This document shows positions 2,849 through 62,236 of a stretch of DNA of 64,000 bases, one piece after another. The stretch lies in assembly GCA_041748075.1 (NCBI GenBank), contig JBGTDX010000143.1, forward strand, positions 49,701 to 113,700. Direction: 5' to 3'. The position numbers and the translations under genes were made by a program. The stretch is from Thermoanaerobaculia bacterium (GTDB taxonomy: Bacteria > Acidobacteriota > Thermoanaerobaculia > Gp7-AA8). The notes below the pieces were generated by a model. The model ran no database searches. It was not told the DNA's origin and was given only the letters and a program-made list of their open reading frames with translations. Positions within the stretch are counted from its first letter, which is position 1; each line of letters opens with the position of its first letter.

Positions 2849-4129
2849 ATGGCTCTTGAAGGAACTCTAAAGGACTTCAGCCTCGCTGACATCTTCCAGT
2901 TGATCGGACTCCAGAGGAAGACAGGCGTGCTGACTCTTCGCGGCAAAGACGACACGGTCACCGTCACCTTTCTCGACGGAAAGGTCGTTTCAGCAGACTC
3001 ACTCAACCGGCGGCTCGAGCACAGGCTCGGCCACGTCCTGATCAAGACCGGAACGCTCACAGACGAACAACTCAACCGCGCGCTCGAAATTCAGCGGGAG
3101 ACCCTGCAGCGACTCGGATTCATCCTGACTCACTACGGCATCATCTCCACCGAAAGCCTCCGGGCTGCGCTCCAGCTTCAGATCCTCCAGATCATCTACA
3201 GGCTCTTCCGGTGGCAGGACGGCGAATACCACTTTTCGCAGGAAACCACCATCGAATACGACCGCGAGAACGTCGTCCCCATCACGGCGGAATCCGTCCT
3301 GATGGAAGGAGCGCGGATGATCGACGAGTGGCCGATGATCGAAAAGCGCGTCCGCTCGTATGACATGGTCTTCCGCAAAAAACCACTCGACGAAAAAACT
3401 GCTCGGCTGGTTGCTCAACCCGGCGAAACCGCCGATCCGGAAGACAGCAAAACGCGGCGCGCCAGAAGCGGAGACGGCATACGGATTTCTCGCGATGAAC
3501 AGCTCGTCTACGATCTGGTCGACGGCGAGCGCACGGTCGGAGACATCGTCGAGGCGAGCAGGCTCTCCGAATTCGATACAAATCGCGCGTTGTACGACCT
3601 GGTCGGGCGCGACCTCATCCAGGAAGTGGTCGACTCCGCGCCCCTCATGACGATCGACGAGAGCGTTCTCACGCCACTGCCTGTCGATGAAACTCCCACC
3701 GTCCTTCTCCCCCTCGTTGCGATTCTCGCCATTGTGGCCATGCTCTCACTCGCTACTTCCTGGAAAAACCCGATCAACATCACGAGTCCCATCGGACGCT
3801 CGCAGTCGGCCATCGAGGAGGCCCGCAAGGCAGTCTCGTTTCAGCGGATCCGAACCATCGGGGAGGCCGTCGACGGCTACAGGATGGTCAACGGCGGGTT
3901 GCCCGAGGAACTCGAGGACCTGACCCCCAACTTCATTGCCGAGGACGTGCTGCGCGATCCCTGGGGCAATCCGTACAAGTACCTCCAGCCTCCAGGCAAG
4001 TACCTGGTCATCGGTTTCACGCCCGACGGCCGTGCCGATACCGATCTGTTCTATTCGAGAGTCATCGAAACCCCGGGCATTGCGGCGAAGGGAACAGAGC
4101 CTACGGGTGGGATCGTACTGATCGACTGA
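2849..4129 (+). CDS. DUF4388 protein with tandem MshEN motif, TM helix and GspG-like C-terminal domain
   Basis: MALEGTLKDFSLADIFQLI..KTGVLTL (DUF4388), two RLGxxLxxxGxxxxxxLxxxLxxQ motifs, a TM segment, and DPWGNPYKY..GPDG-like GspG signature. GAGG RBS. Confidence 0.8.
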   Translation: MALEGTLKDFSLADIFQLIGLQRKTGVLTLRGKDDTVTVTFLDGKVVSADSLNRRLEHRLGHVLIKTGTLTDEQLNRALEIQRETLQRLGFILTHYGIISTESLRAALQLQILQIIYRLFRWQDGEYHFSQETTIEYDRENVVPITAESVLMEGARMIDEWPMIEKRVRSYDMVFRKKPLDEKTARLVAQPGETADPEDSKTRRARSGDGIRISRDEQLVYDLVDGERTVGDIVEASRLSEFDTNRALYDLVGRDLIQEVVDSAPLMTIDESVLTPLPVDETPTVLLPLVAILAIVAMLSLATSWKNPINITSPIGRSQSAIEEARKAVSFQRIRTIGEAVDGYRMVNGGLPEELEDLTPNFIAEDVLRDPWGNPYKYLQPPGKYLVIGFTPDGRADTDLFYSRVIETPGIAAKGTEPTGGIVLID

Positions 4130-4214
4130 AGAATTGATAATTGAGAATTCAGAATTCAGAAAGGGACTCGAGCGAGACTTTTCTGAATTCTCAATTCTCA
4201 ATTCTAATTCTTCA
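4127..4214. repeat. Palindromic element with GAATT(G/C)A heptamer arms (MITE-like)
   Basis: TGAA(GAATTSA)x4 GAAA, ~18 nt spacer, then the inverted arm ending TTCA. Lies between convergent genes and both terminal TGAs are their stop codons. Confidence 0.9.
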
Positions 4215-5750
4215 TCGATCGGCCTGGCCGGCGAGGAAGTCCGGCGTGAAGATCTTTTCGATCTGCTCCTCGGTGAGCAGCTTCTTCCGGCGCAGCAGGT
4301 CGGGAATGGGTGTACCGGATGAAGCGGACTCCTTTGCAATCTCCGCCGCGCGCATATAGCCGATCAATGGATTGAGCGCAGTGGCAAGCGCGGGAGAGGT
4401 GATGTAATACGCCCGGCAACGTTCCCTGTCGACCTCGATTCCGGCGATGCACCGATCGACGAACACCGGCAGGTAGTTGCTCAGGATCTGAATCGAGAAG
4501 AGCGTTTCGAATGCCATCATCGGCATCATGACGTTCAGTTCCAGCTGGCCGGCCTGCACCCCATAGGCAACCGCTGTATCTGCCCCGATGATGTGAAAGC
4601 AGATCTGATTCATGCATTCGAGCATCGACGGGTTCACCTTGCCGGGCATGATCGAAGACCCGGGCTGCACTGCCGGAAGGATGATCTCGGCAAGACCCGT
4701 CTGCGGTCCGGACGACAGCAGCCGTAGATCGTTGGTGATTCTCGTGAGCTCGAGCGCCAGGTTCCGAAGGGACGCCGATGTCGCGGAAACCGGCAACTGG
4801 GACTGCATGGCCTCTCTCAGATCATCGATCGGTTCGAGAGACAGCCGCGTCATCATCGCCAGATAGCCGACCACGACGAAACGATACCCGGGGGGCGTGT
4901 TGATCCCCGTGCCCGTCGCAGTCCCCCCGATACCGAGCTGGCGGAGCTCATCCGCTGAATCCGAAAGGAGCCGGGTTGCACGCCGGACTGCAGCGGCCCA
5001 TGCCTTGAATTCCTGTCCGAGTGTCACCGGCACGGCATCCTGGAGGTGCGTTCTGCCCGACTTGATCACATCCGAAAACTCTTCGCCTTTCCCATCAAGC
5101 GCGAATGCCAGGCCGTCGAGAGCCGGAAGCATCTCGCGGAGCAGCATGAGTGTCGCGAGGCGCGTGGCGGTGGGAAAGGTATCGTTGGTGGATTGAGCCA
5201 TGTTCACATGATCGTTTGGGTGGATGGGCTTGTAGTGGCCCGCTCTGCCGCCGCAACGCAGGTTCGCCAGGTTGGCGATCACTTCGTTGCAGTTCATGTT
5301 GAATGACGTCCCGGCACCTGCCTGAAAGACATCGACGGGAAACTGATCGAGATACGCCATGTCGATGTAGGGCTTCGCCGGACGTCCGGTGCCGTCGTGG
5401 ATGTCGTCTTCGTCCGCCAGCAGGCTTCCGGGCATCGGCAGATCATCCGATCCCGCCTTTCGCTTTCTTGCGAGTCTCCCGAAGGTCTGCGTCGTCTCGC
5501 CGATGATCTCATCGCAGGCATCACAGATGGCACGGGCTGATTTTCGATCCAGCCCTCCGAGCTCGTAGTTCGCCAGCGCAGCCGCCTTCTTGAGCAGTAC
5601 GAATGCGCGAATGAACGCGGGATGCTCGCGAAGGCCGCTCACCGGAAAGTTCTCGACCGCCCGTTGGGTTTGCGCTCCGTACAGGGCACTTCTGGGAACG
5701 CGAACCTCGCCCATCGTGTCGCGCTCGATACGGAAGGCTTTTTTCGTCAT
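4212..5750 (-). CDS. aspA: Aspartate ammonia-lyase (class II fumarase/aspartase family) with ~45-aa insertion
   Basis: RIERDTMGEV, DVFQAGAGTSFNMN, QSTNDTFPT, GRTHLQDA and GSSIMPGKVNP. Start re-picked at MTKK. FumC activity cannot be excluded. Confidence 0.8.
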   Translation of the reverse strand: MTKKAFRIERDTMGEVRVPRSALYGAQTQRAVENFPVSGLREHPAFIRAFVLLKKAAALANYELGGLDRKSARAICDACDEIIGETTQTFGRLARKRKAGSDDLPMPGSLLADEDDIHDGTGRPAKPYIDMAYLDQFPVDVFQAGAGTSFNMNCNEVIANLANLRCGGRAGHYKPIHPNDHVNMAQSTNDTFPTATRLATLMLLREMLPALDGLAFALDGKGEEFSDVIKSGRTHLQDAVPVTLGQEFKAWAAAVRRATRLLSDSADELRQLGIGGTATGTGINTPPGYRFVVVGYLAMMTRLSLEPIDDLREAMQSQLPVSATSASLRNLALELTRITNDLRLLSSGPQTGLAEIILPAVQPGSSIMPGKVNPSMLECMNQICFHIIGADTAVAYGVQAGQLELNVMMPMMAFETLFSIQILSNYLPVFVDRCIAGIEVDRERCRAYYITSPALATALNPLIGYMRAAEIAKESASSGTPIPDLLRRKKLLTEEQIEKIFTPDFLAGQADR

Positions 5751-5787
5751 TTGGTTGCTCCGAGTGAAAGAAGTCAGGGGGATCGGT

Positions 5788-5963
5788 CCGTCGTAGCCAA
5801 TTCCGTAGCGGTAGCCGTTGCCGTTGCCGAACCTTATAGCAATTACGTCGCCTGATGAACGTCGCGGAGCTTTCAAGCACACGGGAACTCCTGCTGAAAA
5901 CAGTGGTGGGCGAGGAAACATCCTCGGCTACGGCCACGGCTACGCCGACGGAAACGGAAACGA
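5788..5963. repeat. Degenerate hexamer-armed inverted element
   Basis: CCGTAG/CCGTTG units at ~5788-5829 and inverted CGGCTA/CGGCCA/CGGAAA units at ~5925-5963, around a ~95 nt spacer. Confidence 0.55.
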
Positions 5964-5981
5964 GCTTACCGGGCTACCGGC

Positions 5982-6566
5982 CTAACTGAGACCGCCTTGC
6001 CTCATCGCCGTGATCCTCGCCTTCGACTCATCGAACACTTCGCGATGAAGGCTCCGCCCGTGCGAGTCCATCGTCACGATGGCCATGAAGTCTTCCACCC
6101 AGAGGTGCCAGATGGCTTCGGGACTGCCGAGGTCCATCCAGTCGACCCCATCGACACGCTTGATCGACGCGGCGCACACCTGAGCGGCTCCGCCGACTGC
6201 ATGCAGATAGACTGCGCCATATTCACTGCAGGCGTCCAGCGTCTTCTCACCCATACCACCCTTGCCGATCACACCTCGTATCCCATAATCCCGCATGACT
6301 TCCCACTGATAGGGCTCTTCACGCGAGCTCGTAGTCGGCCCTGCGGCCTTGCAGACCCACGCGTCGCCCTCACGCACCATGACCGGGCCGCAGTGATAGA
6401 TGATCTGACCAGTAAGATCGACCGGAGGCGTGGTCCCTGTGTGGATCCGGTGGTGCACCGCATCACGACCCGTGTAGAGACGGCCCGTAATCGAGACCGT
6501 GTCCCCGACGTTTAGAGAACGAGTGGTTGCCTCGTCGAGGGGAGTCGTGATGCTGATCTTCGCCAT
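5982..6566 (-). CDS. Class I fumarate hydratase / Fe-S hydro-lyase, beta subunit
   Basis: TGRDAVH, YHCGPV, AGPTTSSRE, GKGGMG and MDSHG motifs. Confidence 0.9.
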   Translation of the reverse strand: MAKISITTPLDEATTRSLNVGDTVSITGRLYTGRDAVHHRIHTGTTPPVDLTGQIIYHCGPVMVREGDAWVCKAAGPTTSSREEPYQWEVMRDYGIRGVIGKGGMGEKTLDACSEYGAVYLHAVGGAAQVCAASIKRVDGVDWMDLGSPEAIWHLWVEDFMAIVTMDSHGRSLHREVFDESKARITAMRQGGLS

Positions 6567-6580
6567 GAAACCTCCGGGAC

Positions 6581-6670
6581 TGAAGAATTGAGAATTCAGA
6601 ATTCAGAATTCAGAAACGGACTTGCGCGCGATCCTTTCTGAACTCTGCATTCTCAATTCTCAATTCTTCA
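6581..6670. repeat. Second copy of the GAATT(G/C)A heptamer-armed palindrome
   Basis: Same TGAA..GAAA / TTTC..TTCA arms and a related spacer (CGGACTTGCGCGCGATCC). The right end supplies the stop codon of the alpha subunit gene. Confidence 0.9.
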
Positions 6671-7579
6671 GTACAACCACTCCGTCACCCGTCCCGTCTC
6701 ATCCAGCTCGCATCCCCGCCTCCGGTACGCCCAGCACATGTAGGCAACGCTGACGAAGTAGCTGGCCGGAAGCCGGTTCTGCGTGCCAATCTTGCACGCG
6801 AGCAGCGTGGTCTTTCCGCCAAAGCCCATCGGGCCGATTCCGGAACGGTTGGCTTTGTCGACCACGCGCTGCTCGAGCTCGGCGAGAAGAGGATCGGGAT
6901 TGGTGTCATCCATCGTGCGGAGCAACTGTTCCTTCGCGAAACCATAGCCGGTCCCCCGGTCCCCGCCGATGCAGACTCCGAGGATTCCGGGGCCGCAGCC
7001 CTGTCCCTGCGCCTGAAGGACCGCATCGAGAATCGCGTTCTCGACACCTTCGAGATCGCGACCTCCCAGGTCGGGGTGAGGAAGGCTGTACTGCGCGTTC
7101 ATGTTCTCGCAGCCTCCCCCTTTGAGCATCAGTTTCACTTCGACGTACGGCTCGCGCCATTGATGAAAATGAAAGACGGGCGAGCCTGGACCGGTATTGT
7201 CGCCACTGTTCCTGCCGGTGATGCTGTCGACACTGTTCTGACGCAGGAAGCCCACTCTCGTGGCTTCTCGAACCGCCTCGAGGGCCGTCTCCTCGAAGGC
7301 GATCTGATCGTAGCCCACCGGCGTGTGGACGTAAAACAGAATCGTTCCTGTGTCCTGACACAGAGGAAGTGAATTATCCCGGGCGAGACCTATATTGCAT
7401 CCAATGACATCGAGTGCGACGTCGGCGTTCGATCCTTCGATCTCGTGAGTCCGCGCCGCGCTCACCGCGCGGACGACATCGTCCGGAAGAATCGTACTGG
7501 TCCGGCGGATCAACTCGAGAAGACTGTCCTGGAGGGCAGTTTGGCTCGCGGGGGGGTCGATGAGAGGGCTGGATGTCAT
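6668..7579 (-). CDS. Class I fumarate hydratase / Fe-S hydro-lyase, alpha subunit
   Basis: PLCQDTG, KGGGCEN, GQGCGP, GIGPMGFGG and MCWAYRR (Fe-S cysteines). Confidence 0.9.
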   Translation of the reverse strand: MTSSPLIDPPASQTALQDSLLELIRRTSTILPDDVVRAVSAARTHEIEGSNADVALDVIGCNIGLARDNSLPLCQDTGTILFYVHTPVGYDQIAFEETALEAVREATRVGFLRQNSVDSITGRNSGDNTGPGSPVFHFHQWREPYVEVKLMLKGGGCENMNAQYSLPHPDLGGRDLEGVENAILDAVLQAQGQGCGPGILGVCIGGDRGTGYGFAKEQLLRTMDDTNPDPLLAELEQRVVDKANRSGIGPMGFGGKTTLLACKIGTQNRLPASYFVSVAYMCWAYRRRGCELDETGRVTEWLY

Positions 7580-7810
7580 GATCGTCTCCGGCGCAGGAGT
7601 CTATCGCGGGAAGAGTAGACAGTACACAGCAGATAGAGAACATGGCGCCCTCACCCGGCTGACGCTGATGTTGTTCGATGTCTCTCGCGGAATGAACGCC
7701 TCGGAAATGCCTGCCACGAATACCGGATACCATCTGTGGCGAGGATTCCGGTCTCCTGCCGTCGGCCGAGGGCTTCCCACTGGAAATGAAGATCGTCACT
7801 TCCCTGTTTA

Positions 7811-7837
7811 AAATCTTAGTCTGCTATTGTCAGATTT
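7811..7837. promoter_or_regulatory. AT-rich imperfect inverted repeat upstream of clpB, candidate heat-shock repressor site
   Basis: AAATCTTAGT-CTGCTAT-TGTCAGATTT has dyad ends and HAIR-like N7 spacing. It is not a CIRCE. Confidence 0.35.
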
Positions 7838-7856
7838 ATGAAAAGAGGGAACTACT

Positions 7857-10484
7857 TTGGATTTCAATAAATTAACGATCAAGGCCCAGGAAGCGGTTTC
7901 CGGCGCCCAGACTCTGGCGCGGCGGTCCGGACACTCGGAGTTCACCCCGGAACACCTTCTGGTCACGCTGCTCCAGCAGGAAGGCGGGATCGTCGGTCCC
8001 ATCCTCAACAAGCTCGGCGTGGAGCCCGGGCAGATCGAGATGGAAGTCGCCACGGAGCTGTCCAGGCGATCGAAGGTGGGCGGCGACACAGCGGAGCCGG
8101 GCATGTCCGGGACGCTTCGCAAAGTGTTCGATGCCGCCTTTACAGAGGCTGAGGCATTCAAAGACGAATTCGTCTCGACAGAGCACCTCCTTCTGGGAAT
8201 CGCCGCTACGAAGCAGTCGAGCGCCGCCGAGATTCTCAGGCGATCCGGCGTGACGCGGGACAAGGTGCTCGAGGCTCTCAAATCGGTTCGGGGAACACAG
8301 CGCGTGACGGACCAGAATCCCGAGGACCGGTACCAGGCGCTCGAACGATATGGAAGGGATCTGACAGCGCTCGCGAGACGCGGGAAACTCGATCCGGTCA
8401 TCGGAAGAGACGAGGAAATCCGGCGCCTGATTCAGGTTCTTTCGCGCCGGACGAAGAACAATCCGGTTCTGATCGGTGAGCCGGGAGTCGGCAAAACGGC
8501 GATCGTCGAGGGCCTGGCGCGGCGCATCGTGGAAGGAGACATCCCTGAGGGGCTGAAGAACAAGCGCGTCACATCTCTGGATCTCGGAGCCCTGATCGCA
8601 GGAGCGAAATACCGCGGAGAATTCGAGGACCGGCTCAAGGCCGTCATCAAGGAAGTCGAGGAGTCCGATGGAAAGGTGATCCTCTTCATCGACGAGCTGC
8701 ACACGCTGATCGGCGCGGGTGCATCGGAAGGAGCGATGGACGCGTCGAACCTGCTGAAACCGGCGCTCGCGCGTGGGGAGCTCAGGGCCATCGGTGCCAC
8801 GACGCTCAATGAATTTCAGAAGCACATCGAGAAGGATGCAGCGCTCGAGCGGCGCTTTCAGCCCGTGTACGTCGGTGAACCGTCCGTCGAAGATACGATC
8901 GGAATTCTGCGCGGCCTGAAGGAGCGTTACGAAGTGCATCACGGCGTCAAAATTCAGGACTCGGCTGTCGTCGCGGCGGCAATGCTTTCGCACCGGTACA
9001 TCGCGGATCGGTTTCTTCCCGACAAAGCGATCGACCTGATCGACGAGGCGGCCTCGAAGCTCCGTATCGAGATCGACTCGATGCCGACCGAGATCGACGA
9101 GATCGAACGGCGCGTGATCCAGCTCCAGATCGAAAAGCAGGCGCTGTCGAAGGAGTCTGATCCGATGTCCAGGGAGCGGCTCGCCGCAATCGAGGCCCAG
9201 CTGGCAGAGCTGCAGGAGAAGTCCTCCGGCCTCAAGTCTCAATGGGAGAGCGAGAAGGGAGTCATCCAGACCATCCGTGAGCTCAAGGAACGGATCGAGA
9301 ACACTCGCGACGAGGCCCAGCGTGCCGAGCGCGAGGGAGATCTCAACCTCGCTGCGGAGCTCCGTTACGGAAAGATGCCTCAACTCAATCAGGAGCTCGA
9401 GCGAGTTTCCTCGCAACTGGCAGAAATGCAGAAGTACGGTGGACTGCTCAAGGAGGAGGTCACCGAAGAGGACATCGCGGAGATCGTCTCCAAGTGGACG
9501 GGGATTCCGGTCACCAGGATGCTCGAGTCCGAGATCGAGAAGCTCGTTAAGATGGAAGACCGGCTTCAGAAGAGAGTCATCGGCCAGGAGGAAGCCGTGC
9601 TCGCGGTTTCGAACGCCGTGCGGCGCTCACGCGCGGGACTCAAGGATCCCGACCGGCCGATCGGCTCATTCATTTTCATGGGGCCGACGGGTGTAGGCAA
9701 GACCGAGCTCGCCCGGTCGCTCGCCCATTTCCTCTTCGACGACGATCACGCGATGATCCGCATCGACATGTCGGAGTACATGGAAAAGCACGCCGTATCG
9801 CGACTCATCGGAGCGCCGCCGGGCTACATCGGCTACGACGAGGGCGGCCAGCTCACCGAGGCCGTTCGCCGCCGGCCGTACGCGGTCGTGCTCTTCGACG
9901 AGATCGAAAAAGCGCACCCCGAAGTGTTCAACATCATGCTGCAGATTCTCGACGAAGGTCACCTGACGGACTCGAAGGGACGACACGTCAACTTCAAGAA
10001 CACCGTGATCATCATGACCTCCAACGTCGGCTCGCACTACATCCACGAGTACCAGCAGTCGGACAAGAGCCCTGCGGGAGAAGAACAGATGCGCAAGCGC
10101 GTCGAAGCCGAGCTTCACAATCACTTCCGCCCCGAATTCCTCAATCGCATCGATGACATCGTGGTGTTCCATGCGCTCGAGCTCGAGCACATCGTGAAGA
10201 TCATCGACATTCAGCTCAGGAACCTGTCGGCAATCCTCGCTGAGCGTGGTCTCACTCTCGAGGTCAGTCAGCCGGCAAGGGAGCGACTGGCGAGAGAGGG
10301 TTACGACCCTGCCTTCGGTGCCCGTCCACTCAAGCGTGCGCTGCAGCGCCTGGTCATCGACCCGCTGGCGATCGAGCTCCTCGAAGGTAAATTCAAGCCG
10401 GGAGAGACCGTCTACGTGCATGCCGACCCGAGCACCTCGGGCGTCGTGCTGGCGAACTCACCCGAAGTCGGGACAGTCAATTGA
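7857..10484 (+). CDS. clpB: ATP-dependent chaperone ClpB
   Basis: Two AAA+ modules ([16 protein letters not shown]), a coiled-coil M domain and FGARPLKR. 875 aa, TTG start. Confidence 0.97.
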
Positions 10485-10510
10485 ATGACGAATGACGACT
10501 GCGGGGGTGA

Positions 10511-10891
10511 TTACTTCTTCCCTATCATCCTGTCGTCTGACATCCCGTGTGTCGCAGACCAGGTCAGCAGCGCTGTTTCCTGCTCGGGCCAGCTTTTTCC
10601 CTCGAGCCGCGGAAGCGGGATGAACGTCGTGTCGCCCCTGCTGAGCGACGAGTAAATCGCCAGAATCAAATGCGCGAGAACCAGCGGCGCCTTCGAGGCA
10701 TCACTGTTGATGTCGTGCGCGCTGCCAGACAGAAGCGATATCTGCTCCTCGAAGCCGCTCTTCGCGAGATGGAAGGCCTCGGATGGGCTGTGCTCGAGCT
10801 TGCTGTAATAGCGGATCAACTCCCGGTCGAACAGACCACTCTCCTCGAGAGCAGTCCAGACTCGCCCCAGCTCCCATCGTTCGTCAGGCAT
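10511..10891 (-). CDS. Hypothetical protein (126 aa)
   Basis: Strong GGAGGTG RBS. Fills the gap between clpB and the repeats. No recognisable motif. Confidence 0.6.
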   Translation of the reverse strand: MPDERWELGRVWTALEESGLFDRELIRYYSKLEHSPSEAFHLAKSGFEEQISLLSGSAHDINSDASKAPLVLAHLILAIYSSLSRGDTTFIPLPRLEGKSWPEQETALLTWSATHGMSDDRMIGKK

Positions 10892-10958
10892 CGTTGCACC
10901 TCCGCTCTTTCAGCACTTCGTCAGCCCAAAGGCATCAGCTGAGGCGGCGGCCGAACAT

Positions 10959-11045
10959 GTGTCATCCTGAGCGCGGTGAAGGATCCCTCGAAGGCATGCG
11001 GTGTCGCCGAAATCAGGAGATCCTTCGCTTCGCTCAGGATGACAC
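10959..11045. repeat. REP-like palindrome, GTCATCCTGAGC family
   Basis: Perfect 15-bp outer arms GTGTCATCCTGAGCG/CGCTCAGGATGACAC plus inner GAAGGATC/GATCCTTC. Fragments occur at ~17910, 19867, 36916 and 58420-58445. Confidence 0.85.
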
Positions 11046-11068
11046 GCCGGCTCGCTCCACCTCAGGAT

Positions 11069-11202
11069 GTCATTCGTCATTCGTCCACTCGTCATTCGTC
11101 CACTCGTCATTCGTCCACTCGTCATTCGTCCACTCGTCATTCGTCCACTCGTCACTCGTCATTCGTCACTCGTCATTCGTCACTCGTCATTCGTCATTCG
11201 TC
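11069..11202. repeat. GTCA(T/C)TC heptamer tandem array with a higher-order 15-bp unit
   Basis: About 18 units. (GTCATTC GTCCACTC)x5 spans 11076-11150. Overlaps the last codons and stop of the peptidase gene. Confidence 0.95.
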
Positions 11203-12888
11203 CGGTGTTTCCCCCGCGCCCGCAAACACCGGCTCGATGTCCACCGGAATGTCTTCGAGCCGCGCGATGACTTCCTTGATCTCGGGGCTCGCGATTCCGT
11301 ACTTGTTTACGAGCCGCTCGGCCCTGGCAAAATCGCCCGTCGCTTCGATCAACAGAAGCTCGTTCGCGAGCGAGCGGGTGGCTTCCTCCATCCTCGCGAA
11401 GTCGACGCGGAACCGCCCATCTCCGGCCGGAACGATTCCGCCTTTCTCCCGGAACCAATTCCATTGAATCGCATTGCCTCTACCGTGGGCCGAGTCGATT
11501 CCGAATCGAAGGCTGCGGAACATCACGCCGGCGTTCGTGGCGAACATGGTCTCCCGGTCGAAGGCGGTTACGAGACCCTCGTCCATCGCGTACATGAGAT
11601 TCCACAGACTCAGCACATCCGCCTTGGCTTCCTCGATTGTCGAATAGAGGTTCTGCAGAAGCAGCCGTGTCTCGACCCGCTTGCCGTCCGGTGCTGTAAT
11701 CAGGCCGGGTCCCACGCCGTGCGACAACTCGTGAAAGAGGACGTGGTTGAAAAACGCATCAAACGTAACGAGGTCGATCTGGGAACTGTCGAGGACTCTC
11801 GCGGCGATCGGCTGTCCGCTTTGCCGGAACTTCGCCTCCATCACGTTCTTGAGCAGAACCATCTTCGATCCCTTGGCCTCCCGGACTTTCTCGTCGTTCG
11901 GCAGGTTGAAGGCCGCGGTCTGCACGCCGCGCCGGGCGTCGCCTGCCGTGAAAACCTCCTGCACGACGCGAATCGGTGAATCCGTGCCTCTGTTGGGGTT
12001 CTTGTGCTCGTCCGGAATCGGCAGATTGCGCTCCATGGCAGGCATATGGCTCGAATAAAGGGCAAGCTTCTCGGTTTCCGGCTTGTCGACGACGGTAATG
12101 AACGATTCGAACGATGCCTTGTAGTTGAACAGGTTGTCCTCGTACACCTCGTAGGGTCCGATGATGACCTCGAGGTCGGAATCGAGATCCATCCAGGCGA
12201 GGTCGCTCTCGAAGTAGTCGTTCGAGGAGAACGATGCGACCAGCTTCGTCAGGTAGTTGCGAAGCGACGCATTGCCCGTGAGCGCCGCCGCCTCAGTGAG
12301 AAGCCTTCCTGCAGGATCGAGGTGCTCTTTGTAATACGTGGAGTACGGGATGGCGACCAGCCGGTCTCCCTCCCTCCGGATCACGGTGAACAGGCCCTGA
12401 AAGCTTTCCTTGTCTCCGGGATTCGCAGCGATCCACGCCTCGAGCTCTTCTTTGGTCAGGTCTTCGGGATAGAAGCCTGCACCGGCGGGTTTGGGGCCGA
12501 CCGAAAGGAACGGTTCGTTCTCCTTCAAACGGTCCCAGGGGCCTTTCATGTTCTCGAAATAGGCGAGCGCCGGAGAGCTTCCGGCGGCCCGAAGCTGCTC
12601 ATGCCATGCGGGATTTCTCTCGGACACCTGACGGTAGAAGATCGCATCCATGTAGCGCGAGGCTTCGATCAGTTTCGCGAGAACCTGCTGTTCCCGGGAG
12701 TCGAGCAGGTTGCGGTCGTAGTCGATGACCGTTCGCGGGAGCTGGCTTCTCCGCTGCTCGATATCGGGGACCACTTCCAGCGCACCTTGCGTCTCCTGTG
12801 TGGCGGTCGTCGCTTCCTGTTGCTCACCGGCCCTGCATCCCAGGATGGACATCAGAAGAATGATCGTGATCGCCAGACGTACTTTCAA
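11194..12888 (-). CDS. Peptidase M49 (dipeptidyl-peptidase III-like) lipoprotein
   Basis: Lipobox ILGC, IGPYEVYED, AFNLPND, HELSHG and EEAKAD. TTG start after GGAGG. Confidence 0.85.
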   Translation of the reverse strand: MKVRLAITIILLMSILGCRAGEQQEATTATQETQGALEVVPDIEQRRSQLPRTVIDYDRNLLDSREQQVLAKLIEASRYMDAIFYRQVSERNPAWHEQLRAAGSSPALAYFENMKGPWDRLKENEPFLSVGPKPAGAGFYPEDLTKEELEAWIAANPGDKESFQGLFTVIRREGDRLVAIPYSTYYKEHLDPAGRLLTEAAALTGNASLRNYLTKLVASFSSNDYFESDLAWMDLDSDLEVIIGPYEVYEDNLFNYKASFESFITVVDKPETEKLALYSSHMPAMERNLPIPDEHKNPNRGTDSPIRVVQEVFTAGDARRGVQTAAFNLPNDEKVREAKGSKMVLLKNVMEAKFRQSGQPIAARVLDSSQIDLVTFDAFFNHVLFHELSHGVGPGLITAPDGKRVETRLLLQNLYSTIEEAKADVLSLWNLMYAMDEGLVTAFDRETMFATNAGVMFRSLRFGIDSAHGRGNAIQWNWFREKGGIVPAGDGRFRVDFARMEEATRSLANELLLIEATGDFARAERLVNKYGIASPEIKEVIARLEDIPVDIEPVFAGAGETPDE

Positions 12889-13051
12889 AATTCCTCCTTC
12901 GGCTACCGGAATCCGGCAGGTGTCGCGCGCAGGGCACATTCTCTCTCCATTCGCGCCGGCCGGCGGTGAATATCGTGAACGCCATCCTTCATTCTCCATC
13001 TGGCAAGTTGCGTTCCCCTCTGCTATCGTCACGACCAGGGAGTGTGCTGAC

Positions 13052-13660
13052 TTGATCGTTCAATGTCCCGAGTGCCAGTCGCGCTACAGCTACGACGATG
13101 AGCGGTTCGAGCGGAAGCCCTCGCGCAAGCTCCGCTGCTTTCAGTGCAGGGAGGTCTTCGAGGTCGTCAATCCTGCATACGCGGCCGCGCGGCCGATGAC
13201 GGACGCGGACGAAACCGGCGCGCACAAGCGGCTCGAAGTGCTGGAACGGGATCCGATCGACGAGGAGGCTGTCGAGAGGCCTAAGCGTCCCAGGAAACGG
13301 AAGAGGACGGAGGAGCGGGCGGGACCGATTCAGCCTGAGGGAGACCCGAAGATGCCCGATGGGCTGCGCTTCTCGCTGGCCGTGATCAGCGGTCCGGACT
13401 CCGGCAAGGTCTACAGGATCGACAAACCCAGGATCGTGATCGGGCGTTCCCATGGCGATCTATCCCTCACTGACTCGGAAACGTCGAGGTCGCATGCCGC
13501 CATCATCGTTTACGAGAACACGATCCTGCTCGACGATCTCGAGTCGACCAACGGAACGTTCCACAAGGGCAAACCTCTGACCGAGCCCATCCCGCTTCAC
13601 AATCACTCAGAGTTTCAGGTGGGAAACACTACACTGATGCTGATCGTCACACGCGAATAG
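13052..13660 (+). CDS. MJ0042-type zinc-ribbon + FHA domain protein
   Basis: IVQCPECQSRY..LRCFQCREVF, and FHA motifs IGR, SRSHA, STNGT. TTG start. Confidence 0.85.
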   Translation: MIVQCPECQSRYSYDDERFERKPSRKLRCFQCREVFEVVNPAYAAARPMTDADETGAHKRLEVLERDPIDEEAVERPKRPRKRKRTEERAGPIQPEGDPKMPDGLRFSLAVISGPDSGKVYRIDKPRIVIGRSHGDLSLTDSETSRSHAAIIVYENTILLDDLESTNGTFHKGKPLTEPIPLHNHSEFQVGNTTLMLIVTRE

Positions 13661-13699
13661 CCGCGAGAGGCGAGGAGCCCGAGGCAGCGTTTCTACCCG

Positions 13700-14551
13700 A
13701 TGACCATTCGAGAAGCGGACCGAAGCAGAACCCCACCATCCACTGCGAGGCTTTCTTTCGCCTCGGAGATCGCCACGCTATTCCGCTACCGGCAACTGAT
13801 CCTGACACTGACGGTGCGCGATCTCAAAGCGCGCTATCGAGGCTCGGTTCTGGGCTTTTTCTGGTCTCTGGCGAATCCACTGATGCTGCTGGGTGTGTAT
13901 ACGCTGGTCTTCACCCGATTTTTTCCCCGTCCCGACATCAACCCGTATTCGCTCTTTCTATTCGCAGGAATCCTTCCCTGGACGTTTTTCGCGGGCTCGA
14001 TCATGGAGACGACGACATCGATCTCGAGCAATGCGGGTCTCGTCAAGAAAGTGATGTTTCCGGCCGAGGCTCTGCCGCTGGTCGTTGTGTTCTCGCACCT
14101 GACGCATTTCGCGCTCGCCCTGCCGATTCTGCTGGCCGCCGCTCTGCTGTCGGCGCTCCTGGGCAAATCGCATCTGGGACTCGCGATCTTCGCAGTTCCG
14201 CTCATCATGATTCTACAGACGCTGTTCATCGCCGGACTGGCGCTGGCCATCTCTTCGGCCTCGGTGCTGTTCCGTGATCTCCGCGACCTGGTCGCCAATC
14301 TCATGCAGCTGGGATTCTTTCTCACGCCGATCATCTACTCGGTAGAGGCCATCCCATCCCGAGGGATCCGGGCTGTGCTGATGCTCAACCCGATGACCTC
14401 GTTCGTGGTTGCATACCAGAAGATCTTTTTTTACGGGCAATTACCCGGAGTTCCGGAGTCGCTGCTGATGGTGTTCTACACTGCAGTTTCTCTGGCTGCC
14501 GGCTTCATCGTGTTCGATCGTCTGCGCGACACGCTTGCGGAGGCCATCTGA
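13700..14551 (+). CDS. wzm: Polysaccharide export ABC transporter permease (Wzm)
   Basis: RDLKARYRGSVLGFFWSLANP, FFLTPIIY and NPMT; six TM segments. Confidence 0.9.
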   Translation: MTIREADRSRTPPSTARLSFASEIATLFRYRQLILTLTVRDLKARYRGSVLGFFWSLANPLMLLGVYTLVFTRFFPRPDINPYSLFLFAGILPWTFFAGSIMETTTSISSNAGLVKKVMFPAEALPLVVVFSHLTHFALALPILLAAALLSALLGKSHLGLAIFAVPLIMILQTLFIAGLALAISSASVLFRDLRDLVANLMQLGFFLTPIIYSVEAIPSRGIRAVLMLNPMTSFVVAYQKIFFYGQLPGVPESLLMVFYTAVSLAAGFIVFDRLRDTLAEAI

Positions 14552-15933
14552 CAGCCGCACTCTCTCTCCGTGATGTCTCCAAGAGCTACAGGCTCTTCGG
14601 CAGGCGATCGCAATTTCAGACGCTCAAGAGTGCGCTCCTGAGGCGCGATTTCAAAGCTTCGGGTGAATCGTCCGTTCTCGCGCTGCACGACATCACCTTC
14701 GAGGTCGACAAGGGCGAGTCGTTCGGGATCATCGGACGCAACGGGTCGGGCAAATCGACGCTGCTCAAGCTCATCTCGGGAATCCTCAAGCCAACGACAG
14801 GATCCCTCGCCGTGGACGGGCGAATCTCCGCGCTGATCGAGTTGGGTGCCGGCTTCCATCCCGAGATTACCGGAAGAGAGAACATCTACATAAACGGCAT
14901 CATGCTCGGGTTGACGCGTCGCGAGATCGACCGGAAGTTTCCGCATATCGTCGAGTTCGCCGGTATCGGCGAGTATCTCGATGAACCGGTCAAGACCTAC
15001 TCGTCAGGCATGTACGTCCGTCTCGGTTTCGCCGTCGCCGTTCATGTGGACCCGGACATCCTCCTCATTGACGAGGTGCTCGCAGTGGGTGACGAGGAGT
15101 TTTCACAGAAGTGTATCGCGAAGATTCAGGAGATGAAGTACCGGGGCGTGACAATGTTGTTCGTCACGCATCAGCTGGATCTTGTCCGCAACCTCTGCGA
15201 TCGAACGCTCTGGCTGGACGACGGAACAATCGCCGGAATGGGCGATCCGATTCGAGTGGTCGACGCCTATCTCCAGCGCATCTCCGGCACCGAGCTGGCG
15301 CCAGTCGCGGAAGATGACGAAACAGCGGAAGCGGAGAACGGAGAAGGGACGGACAGCGAGGATCTCGAGAGGGAAGAACGCTGGGGCTCGGGTGAGATTC
15401 TGATTCCGAGAGTCTCACTGACGGATCGCGACGGCAATGATCTGGTCGCCGTCGGCACCGGCACTCCGGTGACTGTGGAGCTCGAGGTGCGGGTCCGCGA
15501 ACCGCAGACCGATTTCGTGTTCGGGATCGGTATCTACCACGCCGATGGGACCTGCGTTTACGGCACCAATACGGAGCTGGAAGGGTGGCTGCCGGACCGC
15601 ATCGAGTCGAACGGAATCGTCAAGTTCGTCATCAGCGCACTCGATCTCGTGGCGGGCTCGTACAGGCTCGACACCGCAGTTCATTCACGCAACGGGCGCG
15701 CATTCGATTACCGGCGAGGTGTGGTCCGATTCGTCGTCGGATCCCGCATTCACGACGTCGGCGTGTACAGACCGAAGCACGAATGGAGGTTCGAGGGAGG
15801 CATCTCGTTCAAGTCCGTCGACGTGCTGACGCGGAATGTTCCGGCTCCCATGGCGGAGTACATCAAGGACAACGAGGAGCCGGCGCCGGCTTACAGGAAG
15901 CGACGGCCGAAACGCCGGAAAAGCGACACATGA
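14548..15933 (+). CDS. wzt: Polysaccharide export ABC transporter ATPase (Wzt) with C-terminal binding domain
   Basis: Walker A GRNGSGKST lies upstream of the ORF-track start (14812). YSSGM, DEVLAVGD and RWGSGE present. Start inferred at CTG 14548. Confidence 0.85.
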   Translation: MTAALSLRDVSKSYRLFGRRSQFQTLKSALLRRDFKASGESSVLALHDITFEVDKGESFGIIGRNGSGKSTLLKLISGILKPTTGSLAVDGRISALIELGAGFHPEITGRENIYINGIMLGLTRREIDRKFPHIVEFAGIGEYLDEPVKTYSSGMYVRLGFAVAVHVDPDILLIDEVLAVGDEEFSQKCIAKIQEMKYRGVTMLFVTHQLDLVRNLCDRTLWLDDGTIAGMGDPIRVVDAYLQRISGTELAPVAEDDETAEAENGEGTDSEDLEREERWGSGEILIPRVSLTDRDGNDLVAVGTGTPVTVELEVRVREPQTDFVFGIGIYHADGTCVYGTNTELEGWLPDRIESNGIVKFVISALDLVAGSYRLDTAVHSRNGRAFDYRRGVVRFVVGSRIHDVGVYRPKHEWRFEGGISFKSVDVLTRNVPAPMAEYIKDNEEPAPAYRKRRPKRRKSDT

Positions 15934-15944
15934 CGGCAGACTTT

Positions 15945-16453: not shown

Positions 16454-16493
16454 TTCTCACAGTGCGCGCCGGGAGTCCGGGTATGATCCGCGC

Positions 16494-21410: not shown

Positions 21411-21417
21411 CGTCCCT

Positions 21418-51426: not shown

Positions 51427-51490
51427 GGTTCTGGGAGACCCCTGAACCCACAACCCAGAACCCACAACCCAGGACCCAGAACCCAGAACC
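51427..51490. repeat. (G/C)AACCCA heptamer array with short inverted arm
   Basis: GGTTCTGGG, a spacer, then ~6.5 SAACCCA units. Confidence 0.85.
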
Positions 51491-51604
51491 GGGCGGGGCG
51501 GGGGAAGGGGGCGCAATCTTTGCAGAATCGGCAACGTGCCGGGCGCAACAGCGCGGCGAGATCACCGCGGGAGGACCAGCCCGCAAATGGAGGGACGGTC
51601 ACAG

Positions 51605-51817
51605 ATGTCAGAAATAGGCGTAGTCAAATGGTTCAACAACGACAAAGGATTTGGCTTCATCACCCGGGATGGCGGGGAGGATGTATTCGTCCACCACACA
51701 GCCATCGTCAACCAGAGCGGCTACCGCTCCCTCAACGAAGGTGACCGCGTCGAGTTCGACCTCAAGCAGGGACCCAAGGGTCTCCAGGCCGAAAACGTCC
51801 GGAAAGCAGAAGAGTAG
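51605..51817 (+). CDS. csp: Cold-shock protein
   Basis: [20 protein letters not shown] and GPKG.QA.NV. GGAGG RBS. Confidence 0.96.
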
Positions 51818-58385: not shown

Positions 58386-58494
58386 TGGAAGAAAGAATGC
58401 CATCCCTGTAGCTGGCCACGGATGACCACGGTGTCATCCTGAGCCAGAAAAAGGCGCGATTTCTCGCGCCCTTTCAGATTGCATTTCACAAAGC

Positions 58495-60886: not shown

Positions 60887-61009
60887 TTTCCCTTCCCTCG
60901 CAATCGAGTCGTTCCACAATGACGGTCCCGTCGTTGGCGCGCTCCGGATTGCGCACCGGAATTGCGCTTCTCCTGAGCCCGTTTCCCTGTTCCAGAAAGA
61001 GGTGCCACC

Positions 61010-62065
61010 ATGAAGTCGCTGCTTGTTGCTTCGATTCTCCTCGCCTTCACCGTTGCTCTCGCAGCGCAGGAGCCGGCCCTCGCCGAAGAGGTCGAGGTCA
61101 ATCTGGTCCTGGTGGACGCCACCGTCACCGACAGATCGGGAAACCAGATTCTCGGTCTCGACAAGGACGATTTCATCATCAAAGAAAACGGTGTGGTGCA
61201 GCAGATCGCATCCCTCGACTACTTCACGAACCGGCGGCTTCTCACGGGCCCCGAAGACAAAGCGGCATTCAAAGTCGAGAGAGTCCGTGAAGAGCGGTAT
61301 TTCGTGCTCTTCTTCCACAAGTTCCTTGCCCCGCCGTCGAGCCTCAACTTCCAGAGCCAGCTGGTTCGTGCCCGGCAGGGTGCCATCGACTTCATCGAGA
61401 ATGAACTGCTGCCTGAGGACAAAGTCGCGGTCGCAGGGTTTGACTCCCGGTTGAAGATGTTCGCGGATTTCACTTCAGACAAGAAAGTGCTCCGGAAAGC
61501 GCTGATGGATGCCTCGAGCTTCTCGAACGGCATCACGAAGACTCCCGCCTACGCCTCGGACGAGCTTTCGATCATGAACCGTATGGATTCACGGAAGATG
61601 ATTTACAGGACGGGACGTATTTACGACGCCATCGAGCTCCTGGCCGATTCACTTCCCGACGTGGCCGCTCGTACTGTCATGGTTCTGTTTACGCCGGGTA
61701 TCGGCGATGTGAGCGATACCAATCCCAATTTCCTCGACAACCAGGAAACCTGGTACGAGCCGATGCGCCGCGCACTCAACAGAAAGAACGTGAGTGTCTA
61801 CACGGTAAACCTGTTGAGAAACACCGGCCTGTACCTGCAGGAGCAGACACTTTCCAGGCTGGCCGCCGAGACCGGCGGTGAGTATTACCGAGGCTTCGTC
61901 GGCTTCGAGACTCCCTTGCGCGAGATCGAGAACGTCAACAACGGCTACTACATGATCAGCTACTACACCGACAAACCGAAGAGTGGAAGCGGCTATCAGA
62001 AGATCGACGTCACGCTCAGGAACCCCGAGTTCCGCGTGAAGGCCCGCGAGGGATACGGGTGGTGA
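61010..62065 (+). CDS. VWA domain protein (VWFA-related acidobacterial type)
   Basis: Signal peptide, VNLVLVDATVTD..G..I.GL...DF.I.ENG, LAAETGG, Y.ISY and ..AREGY. Confidence 0.85.
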   Translation: MKSLLVASILLAFTVALAAQEPALAEEVEVNLVLVDATVTDRSGNQILGLDKDDFIIKENGVVQQIASLDYFTNRRLLTGPEDKAAFKVERVREERYFVLFFHKFLAPPSSLNFQSQLVRARQGAIDFIENELLPEDKVAVAGFDSRLKMFADFTSDKKVLRKALMDASSFSNGITKTPAYASDELSIMNRMDSRKMIYRTGRIYDAIELLADSLPDVAARTVMVLFTPGIGDVSDTNPNFLDNQETWYEPMRRALNRKNVSVYTVNLLRNTGLYLQEQTLSRLAAETGGEYYRGFVGFETPLREIENVNNGYYMISYYTDKPKSGSGYQKIDVTLRNPEFRVKAREGYGW

Positions 62066-62068
62066 TTG

Positions 62069-62236
62069 CGAATGACGAGTGACGAGTGACAAATAGGGCA
62101 CCGAACGCCAGGTGAGAGCGGTACTCTATTCGTCATTCGTCATTCGTCATTCGTCATTCGTCATTCGTCACTCGTCATTCGTCATTCGTCACTCGTCATT
62201 CGTCACTCGTCACTCGTCATTCGTCATTCGTCACTC
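62069..62236. repeat. GA(A/G)TGAC / GTCA(T/C)TC heptamer-armed inverted element
   Basis: Three forward units (62070-62090), a ~40 nt spacer, then ~15 inverted units (62132-62236) containing the pxpBC stop. Confidence 0.95.

Follow-up and report, generated by a model that had tools for sequence, protein, structure and literature searches.

Inverted pairs of tandem heptamer arrays behind stop codons: a possible class of intergenic hairpins in Thermoanaerobaculia

Several intergenic sites in a 64,000-nt stretch of Thermoanaerobaculia DNA (the window) carry a tandem array of 7-nt units, a spacer, and the same unit inverted, yet the units themselves are unrelated from site to site. What would give unrelated units one period and one layout? 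A first-pass annotation had counted at least eight heptamer-armed inverted loci and ascribed them to a common mechanism beyond slippage. The host is a soil bacterium. We compared the window with 80 related loci, mostly from Thermoanaerobaculia (81 sources with the window); these loci were drawn only from within 10 kb around one gene, the related genomes are not independent, and the gene calls in the loci are crude, being the longest ORFs filtered by third-position G+C. In each element, a tandem array rich in G and poor in C, with units of 7 nt or, less commonly, 8 nt, is followed by a unique spacer (9 to ~270 nt) and then by the complementary C-rich array. With about even confidence, we read these zipper-type intergenic hairpins as a lineage-wide class in Thermoanaerobaculia (Acidobacteriota), made up of REP-like post-stop hairpins. 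The features of the window are as follows.

4127–4214, unstranded: GAATTSA-armed hairpin, arms of 4.6 and 4.6 units; RNA fold z −8.9 (+), −8.1 (−)
5788–5963, unstranded: hexamer-armed imperfect inverted repeat, GTAGCC/GTTGCC-type units, spacer ~95 nt; z −3.0
6579–6672, unstranded: GAATTSA-armed hairpin, arms of 38 nt, 92% complementary; z −11.4 sense, −9.3 antisense
10482–10498, + strand: GAATGAC x2.3, overlapping the stop codon of ClpB; G-rich on the sense strand of that gene
10959–11045, unstranded: non-heptameric palindromic repeat with GTCATCCTGAGCG termini, of another dispersed family; z −6.9
11069–11203, − strand: GAATGAC/GAGTGAC array of 18.4 units with a 15-nt (7+8) higher-order period
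13661–13699, + strand: the window's own copy of a 'hot' operon junction, with only about three degenerate GCGAGRR units
17984–18004, − strand: short array, TCACAAC x3 on the + strand, just 5' of the allantoicase gene
21347–21410, unstranded: GAATTSA-armed hairpin with unequal arms, ~2 versus 4.4 units; z −2.9, weak
22263–22299, + strand: AATGTTG x5.6, single arm; z −0.4
37072–37145, − strand: perfect (TCATTCG)x10.6 array ending 11 nt ahead of the likely miaA start
51427–51513, unstranded: SAACCCA x7.9 array plus a 9–11 nt inverted closing piece; z −3.8
62065–62236, unstranded: GARTGAC-armed hairpin between convergent genes, arms of 3.1 versus 15.1 units; z −5.1

The nine loci named in the first-pass annotation resolve into four clear heptamer hairpins (4127–4214, 6579–6672, 21347–21410 and 62065–62236), one hexamer element, one marginal case (51427–51490) and three that are not single paired elements; the first-pass observation is real but claims too much. 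The hairpin at 4127–4214 spans the entire gap between two convergent genes, its ends being both stop codons (4127–4129 on the + strand, 4212–4214 on the − strand), and that at 6579–6672 separates the fumarase alpha stop (6668–6670, − strand) from the beta gene's ribosome-binding site and start. The two have terminal and innermost unit variants in common, and partly also loop sequence, and the second is likely a paralogous copy of the first. The element at 21347–21410 sits between two − strand genes of a purine-catabolism cluster and is kept in the relative L001 with a different arm copy number and loop, while the long arm at 62065–62236 runs into the last codons of a − strand gene and bears out the reported arm inequality of 3 versus 15 units. 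The hexamer version at 5788–5963 holds up too: it is an inverted repeat, long-range and imperfect, that separates the class I fumarase beta and class II fumarase genes (both − strand); we looked for G/C asymmetry in its arms and saw none. The array at 51427–51490, flanked by a GNAT-family gene and a gene for a cold-shock protein, has the 9–11 nt inverted piece that closes the stem as its only partner and is followed directly by a G-tract (51491–51513); its unit is found at two other sites in L001.

The three remaining loci fall short of single paired elements. No inverted arm of the 22262–22313 array was found in the window, and the L001 ortholog of this array (302–387) possesses both arms. 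At 36933–37145 the best reverse-complement double unit is mismatched at 4 of 14 positions, and a lone inverted unit (36933–36939), 122 nt off, is unsupported as the partner of the 37072–37145 array. Between 10482 and 11202, inverted arrays of 2.3 and 18.4 units stand 570 nt apart, with a conserved gene and a separate palindromic element between them; a single element is ruled out by L001, which carries different units at the two sites, a GAATGTT-armed hairpin at the ClpB end and AGAGTGA x3 at the end of the M49-like peptidase gene. The gene at 10511–10891, the sole case of a gene enclosed by paired arms, was rejected as cargo, being conserved in a relative without matching arms.

Period 7 is strongly enriched. 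Tandem Repeats Finder reported 15 period-7 rows covering 640 nt among 41 rows in the window, about tenfold more than in 20 dinucleotide shuffles (means of 1.55 rows and 27 nt), although two of the 15 (2093–2107 and 35869–35883) are two-copy, intragenic and chance-like. Across the 80 loci, 197 such rows (5428 nt) compare with 71.7 rows (1290 nt) in shuffles. Inverted pairing in the window exceeds chance: 7 of the 15 rows have a reverse-complement double unit with at most 2 mismatches within 300 nt, versus 0/15 each for complement-only, reverse-only and direct controls. Over the 80 loci and the window, 110 of 203 heptamer rows had an inverted partner versus 26 and 14 in two controls, an outcome that does not refute the first-pass reading; the paired rows collapse to 63 elements in 35 of the 81 sources, and unpaired, one-sided arrays are common (93/203 rows). 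The period is soft, as octamers pair too (37/122 rows) and a 15-nt higher-order unit (8.9 copies, 95% matches) runs through the longest array of the window. There is little sign of selection on exact arm pairing, because shuffling the unit order of one arm in 32 elements worsened the fold in only 17, and clearly in 6.

The elements stand outside genes, at stop codons or a few bases past them. Though ORFs make up 76.5% of the sequence, 121 of the 203 heptamer rows lie outside the crude ORFs, and 49% of these 121 fall at −25 to +40 nt from a stop codon, versus 8% of random non-ORF 30-mers. Within the elements, the G-rich arm is the 5' arm in 44 of 49 non-tied cases, in 30 of 34 non-tied unit types when each distinct unit is counted once, and in every non-tied octamer row (24/24). 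The G-rich strand of the elements is the sense strand of the upstream gene: post-stop arrays are G-rich on that strand in 24 versus 4 paired and 25 versus 8 unpaired cases, whereas plain post-stop sequence, the control, has no G bias (192 versus 209). The 11069–11203 array, which covers the last codons and stop of the M49-like gene, likewise has its G-rich strand on the sense strand of that gene. Two window arrays, 22263–22299 and 37072–37145, run the other way, with their C-rich strand on the sense side of the genes beside them.

Orientation bears on two further readings. Cruciforms, G-quadruplex or i-motif structures, or repeated sites for a nucleoid or topology protein have been proposed already for BIMEs and for the G-rich heptamers found in Xanthomonas and Nostoc, and would suit the potentially quadruplex-forming GGGGWGT arrays of L046, L050 and others, the G-tract behind the SAACCCA array and the roughly equal folding of both strands. 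However, GAATTSA, GARTGAC and AATGTTG have no G-runs and still obey the layout and the orientation rule, and orientation tracks the direction of the neighbouring gene even where ClpB and the M49-like gene lie on opposite strands 600 nt apart, which favours transcription or translation over DNA topology and leaves action at the DNA level highly unlikely. We also think it very unlikely, if slightly less so, that the G-rich strand was made by directional templated synthesis, growing 5' to 3' inward from either side of a break or stalled end, in the manner of two telomere-type tracts joined head to head, with a few genome-specific templates. A 5' G-rich arm on both strands is the exact polarity of such a fusion, units are genome-specific, and an element appears in a zero-length spacer; against this, no candidate polymerase or template was found, a soft period (7, 8 and 7+8 in one array) is ill-suited to a fixed template, one-sided arrays abound, and slippage alone explains the copy-number changes.

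In the relatives compared, the elements change much faster than the sequence flanking them. The hot operon junction, where a zinc-ribbon/FHA gene is followed by an ABC-2 permease gene, is empty in 4 relatives and holds hairpins of unrelated sequence in 16 others, so that the empty sites anticipated by the first-pass annotation do exist. It is filled in L003 and empty in L004, at a flank identity of 94–95%, the stop and start codons being fused in the empty state (L004), and in L043 and L072 it is occupied by a different dispersed palindromic family. Between L050 and L046 all units have been swapped in concert with identical flanks, and arm copy numbers differ at orthologous sites of the window and L001. 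The 64-kb window alone contains at least four unrelated units, and 106 canonical units are seen over the relatives; separate elements have a unit in common in 14 of 48 same-genome pairs versus 131 of 1905 between-genome pairs, a level of within-genome sharing matched by 0 of 5000 permutations. Most copies have loops unrelated to one another. Two filled/empty or replaced comparisons show no target-site duplication, nor any conserved terminus beyond the unit itself in the copies compared, and the 57 ORFs of the window, scanned against Pfam, include no transposase, recombinase, RAYT or reverse transcriptase family, in agreement with the earlier statement that the window encodes no candidate enzyme.

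These data could point to non-autonomous mobile elements, MITE- or REP/BIME-like, with heptamer arrays as termini, moved in trans by an enzyme encoded elsewhere and merely preferring, or tolerated at, hairpin-friendly gene ends. Genome-specific units that recur at unlinked sites, the agreement of the two GAATTSA copies, the L003/L004 pair and the second family at the hot junction all speak for such mobility; the lack of the enzyme families in the window, of target-site duplications and of a terminus past the unit speaks against it, as do the mostly unrelated loops and the G-first order of 30 of 34 unit types, unexpected of many unrelated transposons, and arm numbers and even units that differ at orthologous sites fit evolution in place. 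We consider mobile elements of this kind rather unlikely. At the other extreme, slippage might inflate any short palindrome or terminator stem that lies in a gap poor in genes, the arrays being least harmful right after stops, with neither function nor spread. The heptanucleotide excess across prokaryotes, put down to polymerase slippage (Mrazek, 2007, as cited in PMC4679880 and PMC4692102), the freely varying copy numbers and arms whose unit order is not clearly mirrored agree with a neutral by-product, which leaves unexplained the G-first order and sense-strand rule, the within-genome unit sharing and the stable, unrelated hairpins that 16 of 20 relatives carry at one junction; we judge it unlikely.

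In the reading that we prefer, REP-like post-stop hairpins, arrays would lengthen, shorten and homogenise through replication slippage, with the bias to ~7-nt steps known from prokaryotes, as supported by the 15-nt higher-order unit, the copy-number differences at orthologs and the concerted L050/L046 replacement. Recombination, gene conversion or mobilisation in trans may now and then carry copies of whole elements or units to further gene ends, as is supported by the unit sharing within genomes and the variants common to the 4127 and 6579 elements. The earlier suggestion of a common mechanism beyond slippage is partly supported. Unit sharing, common variants and strict arm order speak for more than independent slippage at random sequence; a dedicated mechanism for the period is disfavoured because of the known heptanucleotide excess, the soft period, the absence of an enzyme family among the window ORFs and of target-site duplications in the comparisons made, and the rejection of the one enclosed gene as cargo, and the period is most likely explicable without any enzyme.

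The elements would be retained since a long transcribed hairpin immediately after a stop is of use, or at any rate tolerated, in a REP-like role such as 3'-end protection, termination or insulation, or tuning of cistron coupling. We infer this RNA-level role from sequence. Six window elements fold with z from −2.9 to −11.4 versus shuffles, and so do all 16 filled versions of the hot site (z −3.6 to −14.2); of 26 elements in tandem context, only 16 have the sense strand as the better-folding one (Wilcoxon p 0.067). The elements do not have the G+C-rich stem and T-run typical of intrinsic terminators, and a terminator scan of 3500–23000 found 9 terminator-like sites versus 13.9 expected, none at the elements within. 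As for the order of the arms, we speculate that a C-rich arm transcribed first would face Rho; 22263–22299 and 37072–37145, being C-rich on the sense strand, therefore do not fit Rho avoidance.

Among the sources cited here, the convergent pairs of GGGAATC heptamers in Xanthomonas come closest as a precedent; their arrays adjoin stop codons and form 70–75 convergent pairs per genome (Rehm et al., 2015; PMC4692102). As described in that report, the Xanthomonas GGGAATC and Nostoc GGGGAYT repeats resemble our elements in being tandem heptamers, mostly intergenic, at or overlapping the upstream stop codon, with the G-rich strand as coding strand where they follow genes, in convergent pairs able to form stem-loops, in varying in length and sequence among close relatives at kept positions, and in having no link to insertion sequences; Nostoc has only a few inverted pairs (PMC4692102). 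There, one unit dominates a genome and the repeats are read as G-quadruplex-forming (PMC4692102), whereas here at least four unrelated units occur in one stretch of 64 kb, most window units are incapable of quadruplexes, octamer versions exist and the host belongs to a different phylum. What is new relative to Xanthomonas is many different repeat units under one strict orientation rule. Long prokaryotic SSRs also have period 7, the commonest long unit in many genomes (Mrazek, Guo and Shah, 2007); as summarised in PMC4679880 and PMC4692102, that survey describes no inverted pairing, stop-codon position or orientation rule.

REP/BIME elements are likewise intergenic, often form inverted dimers that make larger hairpins, come in species-specific families and have proposed roles in mRNA stability and termination (Di Nocera et al., 2013, PMC3733652; Ton-Hoang et al., 2012, PMC3333891). 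The REP unit is itself a palindrome of 20–40 nt with a GTAG or CGTC tag; the arms of our elements, in contrast, are non-palindromic tandem arrays, and we found neither a tag nor a RAYT. TAACTGA repeats of marine Beggiatoaceae, cyanobacteria and Bacteroidetes are intergenic tandem heptamers at gene boundaries with a suspected post-transcriptional role; unlike our elements, in the account cited they have a single unit, lie just upstream of start codons and are nearly all direct, with 169 direct sets versus 1 indirect (MacGregor, 2015; PMC4679880). Cyanobacterial STRR repeats, which include three tandem heptanucleotides in Calothrix PCC 7601 (as mentioned in PMC4692102) and are used for fingerprinting, share with our elements intergenic tandem heptamers in several unit families per genome; they are described as direct arrays rather than inverted pairs, with different units and in a different host phylum.

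Period 7 is the main tandem-repeat period of the window, with 15 of 41 rows (a row being one Tandem Repeats Finder array call) and 640 nt, against means of 1.55 rows and 27 nt in dinucleotide shuffles. By searching the genome collection with the M49-like peptidase gene (11194-13032), we obtained 80 related loci, nearly all from metagenome-assembled genomes of Thermoanaerobaculia (Acidobacteriota). The M49-like protein of the closest locus, L001, is 86% identical to that of the window, most others being 58-66% identical, and L001 is collinear with window positions 8145-22568. Two records are labelled Gammaproteobacteria (L020) and Bathyarchaeia (L075), labels that may be binning errors, their M49-like genes being 60% and 50% identical to the window protein. 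The relatives were sampled up to 10 kb on each side of a single gene and are not phylogenetically independent, which applies to all counts across them, including the following.

Tandem-repeat periods in the 80 loci compared with shuffles
Period 7: 197 rows and 5428 nt; 71.7 rows and 1290 nt per shuffle
Period 8: 121 rows and 3319 nt; 85 rows and 1664 nt per shuffle
Periods 5, 10 and 11: no enrichment over shuffles
Periods 6, 9 and 12: enriched, as coding repeats would predict

A period-7 row is absent from 18 of the 80 loci. The inverted pairing that the first-pass annotation had noticed in the window is borne out across this sample. Among the 203 rows of window and loci with an exactly 7-nt consensus, 110 have an inverted partner (two reverse-complement units with at most 2 mismatches, no more than 300 nt away), compared with 26 in a complement-only and 14 in a reverse-only control; within the window alone, 7 of 15 rows have one and none does in either control. 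Octamer rows are also paired (37/122; controls 4 and 5), and inverted pairing is near-absent at periods 9 and 10 (4/225 and 1/70 rows). Merging the arms gives 63 paired elements of 52-349 nt from 35 of 81 sources, in which each arm is a tandem array that pairs solely with the opposite arm and is not itself palindromic. These heptamer elements, together with one unrelated palindromic element, are the longest inverted repeats in the whole window. The longest window array (11074-11203) has period 15, a heptamer plus an octamer variant, in 8.9 copies with 95% matches (81% at period 7). Nine loci of the window had been named as inverted elements; four are clear heptamer hairpins, and the remainder are weaker or not single pairs.

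Inverted-element loci of the window
4127-4214: clear heptamer hairpin, exactly filling the gap between two convergent stop codons
5788-5963: hexamer hairpin, weaker than the heptamer ones
6579-6672: clear heptamer hairpin, spanning the fumarase alpha stop codon to the ribosome-binding site of the beta gene
10482-11202: two separate sites, not one element
21347-21410: clear heptamer hairpin
22262-22313: one-armed array
36933-37145: one-armed array
51427-51490: array with a merely short closing stem
62065-62236: clear heptamer hairpin

The surrounding sequence (G+C about 60%) encodes ordinary housekeeping functions, including class I and class II fumarases, ClpB, succinyl-CoA ligase, MiaA, arginyl-tRNA synthetase, a cold-shock protein and a purine-catabolism cluster. 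At 4212-7579 the class II fumarase gene adjoins the split class I alpha and beta genes, all on the minus strand, with repeats parting class II from beta (5788-5963) and beta from alpha (6579-6672). The purine/urate cluster (16494-26098) comprises xanthine dehydrogenase subunits, a urate-oxidase-N-like protein, DUF6986, an allantoicase fused to OHCU decarboxylase, HIU hydrolase and an amidohydrolase.

The arrays concentrate at gene ends. Although ORFs, called crudely in the loci, cover 76.5% of the sequence, 121 of the 203 heptamer rows lie outside them, and 49% of these 121 fall within -25 to +40 nt of a stop codon, against 8% of random non-ORF 30-mers. Arrays overlap stop or last codons at 10482, 11203 and 62236. 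Orientation is equally constrained. Of 49 non-tied elements outside ORFs, 44 have G-rich 5' arms and C-rich 3' arms (binomial p = 8e-9), an order that reads identically from either strand. It holds in 34 of 37 elements with strong skew and in all 24 non-tied octamer rows; counted per distinct unit, 30 are G-first, 4 C-first and 2 tied. Every heptamer locus named in the first-pass annotation obeys it. Ordinary inverted repeats have a mild G-first bias between genes (202 vs 143) and none inside ORFs (338 vs 329). Where an array directly follows a stop codon, its G-rich strand is the sense strand of the gene that ends there, whether the array is paired (24 vs 4) or unpaired (25 vs 8), and plain post-stop sequence is without sense-strand G bias (192 vs 209). 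The rule tracks the gene rather than the chromosome strand: ClpB (plus strand) and the M49-like gene (minus strand), 600 nt apart, are each followed by GAATGAC on their own sense strand.

Since a 7-nt unit containing a stop triplet places stops in every frame, we considered stop triplets as the cause of both position and G-first order. This explanation was rejected: such a triplet occurs in the 5'-arm units of 16 of 51 elements (17.8 expected from letter-shuffled units) and in the units of 19 of 60 stop-abutting arrays (19.2 expected). That the G-first order serves to avoid Rho is speculation, and two window arrays misfit it.

One layout accommodates many sequences. The 203 rows contain 106 distinct canonical units, 71 of them seen once, with at least four in the 64-kb window and several inside single 20-kb loci such as L023. 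Separate elements nevertheless share a unit (at most 1 mismatch) far more within a source (14/48 pairs) than between sources (131/1905), a within-source count reached by none of 5000 permutations. Some window units recur elsewhere, GAATTSA in the distant L019 and L023, AATGTTG in L001, L002, L069 and L070, and SAACCCA in L001. A single element is the probable source of those at 4127-4214 and 6579-6672, because the two have in common a terminal variant, a truncated innermost unit and part of the loop. Other loops are unrelated, of 9-271 nt and ordinary composition; GGGCGG, considered as a conserved loop motif, is present in just 4 of 39. Single-linkage clustering of the units, with one mismatch allowed, was dropped because it linked almost the whole set into a chain.

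Empty and filled versions of orthologous sites, which the first-pass annotation had suggested seeking, do exist among the relatives. The clearest case is a junction at which an ABC-2 permease gene follows a zinc-ribbon/FHA gene. In four loci (L004, L005, L056 and L066) the junction is empty and the stop codon of one gene is fused to the start codon of the next. In 16 others it is filled, by heptamer hairpins of several unrelated sequences, by two octamer hairpins, by a plain G+C-rich hairpin or by a member of a second palindromic family, whose termini are GTCATCCTGAGCG. Each of these 16 fillings folds far beyond its shuffles (z -3.6 to -14.2; 0/100 shuffles as good in each case), and the flanks of a filled (L003) and an empty (L004) junction are 94-95% identical. 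Directly behind the M49-like gene, arrays of at least six unrelated units occur in some genomes and nothing in most. The window and L001 differ at each of the following sites.

Orthologous sites in the window and in L001
21347-21410: occupied in both, the arm numbers and loops being different
22263-22299: one arm in the window, two arms in L001
Site behind the M49-like gene: GARTGAC x18 in the window, AGAGTGA x3 in L001
Site behind ClpB: GAATGAC x2.3 in the window, a GAATGTT-armed hairpin in L001
Near 19850: almost empty in the window, a composite of about 330 nt in L001

Replacement is also seen between L050 and L046, which are 94% identical overall. At one shared site, 57 and 42 nt of flanking sequence are identical while every unit has changed (CGGGTGT vs GGGGWGT) and the loop is unalignable; a second site is filled in L050, its place being taken in L046 by some 45 nt of other sequence, and a third is conserved. 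No target-site duplication was seen in the L003/L004 and L050/L046 comparisons. We considered the gene between the arms of 10482-11202 as cargo, a role we reject for this ORF (10511-10891, minus strand, 126 aa, downstream of the M49-like gene), since L001 has it too, conserved at 81% DNA identity, without matching arms. It has no Pfam or NCBIfam match, and an atlas search returned unnamed look-alikes only.

The closest precedent is the heptameric repeats of Rehm et al. (2015; PMC4692102). According to that paper, the Xanthomonas GGGAATC arrays are 89-93% intergenic, lie at or overlap the stop codon, sit on the coding strand when downstream of genes, and form 70-75 'convergent' pairs per genome; their lengths vary between close species while positions are kept, they are unlinked to mobile elements, and they are interpreted through G-quadruplex formation. 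Our elements resemble the Xanthomonas/Nostoc type, as there described, in their mostly non-genic 7-nt tandem arrays, their stop-codon position with a G-rich coding strand and their frequent nearby convergent pairs with the G strand inward. They differ in belonging to another phylum, in including octamers, in having many units per genome rather than one dominant unit, and in lacking a G-tract of at least three in each unit, so that most cannot form quadruplexes: GGG is absent from GAATTSA, GARTGAC and AATGTTG and present in the SAACCCA complement and some relatives' GGGGWGT units. That such units share the layout and orientation rule makes the quadruplex explanation weaker and suggests that the rule is general.

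Other known systems (REP/BIME, MITEs, STRR repeats, TAACTGA repeats) show partial likeness, and each fails one defining feature. The REP/BIME unit is a short (20-40 nt) imperfect palindrome, unlike the tandem arrays that form the arms here; GTAG (in hexamer units at 5788-5832) and CGTC (in TCATTCG arrays) lie inside the repeat and are not end tags. MITEs have inverted arms in common with our elements, for which no target-site duplication was seen in the L003/L004 and L050/L046 comparisons and no parent insertion sequence was seen. In agreement with the first-pass annotation, no candidate enzyme, RAYT (IS200/IS605-type tyrosine transposase) included, was found among 57 window ORFs scanned against Pfam. 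Nor do the elements resemble intrinsic (Rho-independent) terminators: within 3500-23000, none has a G+C-rich stem with a T-run, and the nine terminator-like sites of that stretch all lie away from its elements. Known RNA families were likewise rejected; no element matches an Rfam covariance model at E up to 1, the sole match in the window being one tRNA-Pro. Our literature search found no account of such repeats in Thermoanaerobaculia or Acidobacteria, and for Acidobacteria only REPs.

A common generating or mobilising mechanism had been proposed in preference to independent slippage. Replication slippage would nonetheless be the engine of array length and homogenisation, given the soft period (7, 8, and 7+8 as 15 nt), the freely differing copy numbers of orthologs and the concerted replacement of units; it is also the explanation already offered for the general prokaryotic excess of heptanucleotides, as cited in PMC4679880 and PMC4692102. 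What slippage alone leaves unexplained is the sharing of units within genomes and the paralogous copies, so some copying of units or elements between sites in a genome must occur, and the proposal is partly supported. As for its agent, no enzyme, target duplication or conserved end was found among the window ORFs and compared sites.

The post-stop position, the sense-strand rule and the junction before the permease gene together point to a tie with how the upstream gene is transcribed or translated. The simplest interpretation, reached indirectly, is that the elements are REP-like RNA hairpins at gene ends. At the RNA level, strand preference is a weak trend, with the sense strand folding better in 16 of 26 tandem-context elements (p = 0.067). 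A mirrored order of units in the two arms, as hairpin-templated correction or selection on exact pairing would leave, was not supported: of 32 elements, 17 fold better with their units in true order than with chunk-shuffled arms, and 6 clearly so. A bolder reading, which we consider improbable, is that the G-first order, shared by dozens of unrelated units of 7 and 8 nt, on either strand and in at least two phyla (counting Xanthomonas, as described by Rehm et al.), marks a dedicated directional process and that lineages without classical terminators use these 'zipper' hairpins as their main gene-end punctuation. Candidate processes would be templated or reiterative G-strand synthesis inward from both sides, as in head-to-head fused telomeric tracts, or a transcription-coupled repeat generator.

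Among the long microsatellites of bacteria, heptamer repeats are the most common, and this lineage offers a natural experiment on them. Many unrelated units follow one rule of placement and orientation, so the unit sequence, and quadruplex formation in particular, cannot be the point. The junction before the permease gene, filled independently by unrelated hairpins in most relatives and empty in others, allows a function to be tested by comparing genomes that have an element there with genomes that have none. Should the elements act as hairpins at gene ends, they would be relevant to the way in which G+C-rich bacteria that have few classical terminators finish or insulate their transcripts.

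The GTCATCCTGAGCG family is dispersed, at 10959-11045, 17926-17938, 19868-19880 and 58433-58445 in the window, at 2894-2976 and 11870-11947 in L001, and in L037, L043, L056, L063 and L072. Its motif has 11 window matches at up to 2 mismatches (3.7 expected) and exact matches in 6 of 80 loci; a literature text search with strings of the element returned unrelated primer matches only. The family shares gene-end niches with the heptamer hairpins and in L001 lies centrally within nested heptamer arms. Four G-tracts resembling a quadruplex (51491-51513) directly follow the SAACCCA array, upstream of the cold-shock protein gene (51536-51817), and similar G-rich tails stand behind this unit in L001. 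Finally, gene-sized cassettes are swapped for unrelated sequence at fixed positions between L050 (7277-7915 and 16297-16388) and L046 (8726-9220 and 16248-16954, respectively), which may reflect turnover of small accessory genes.
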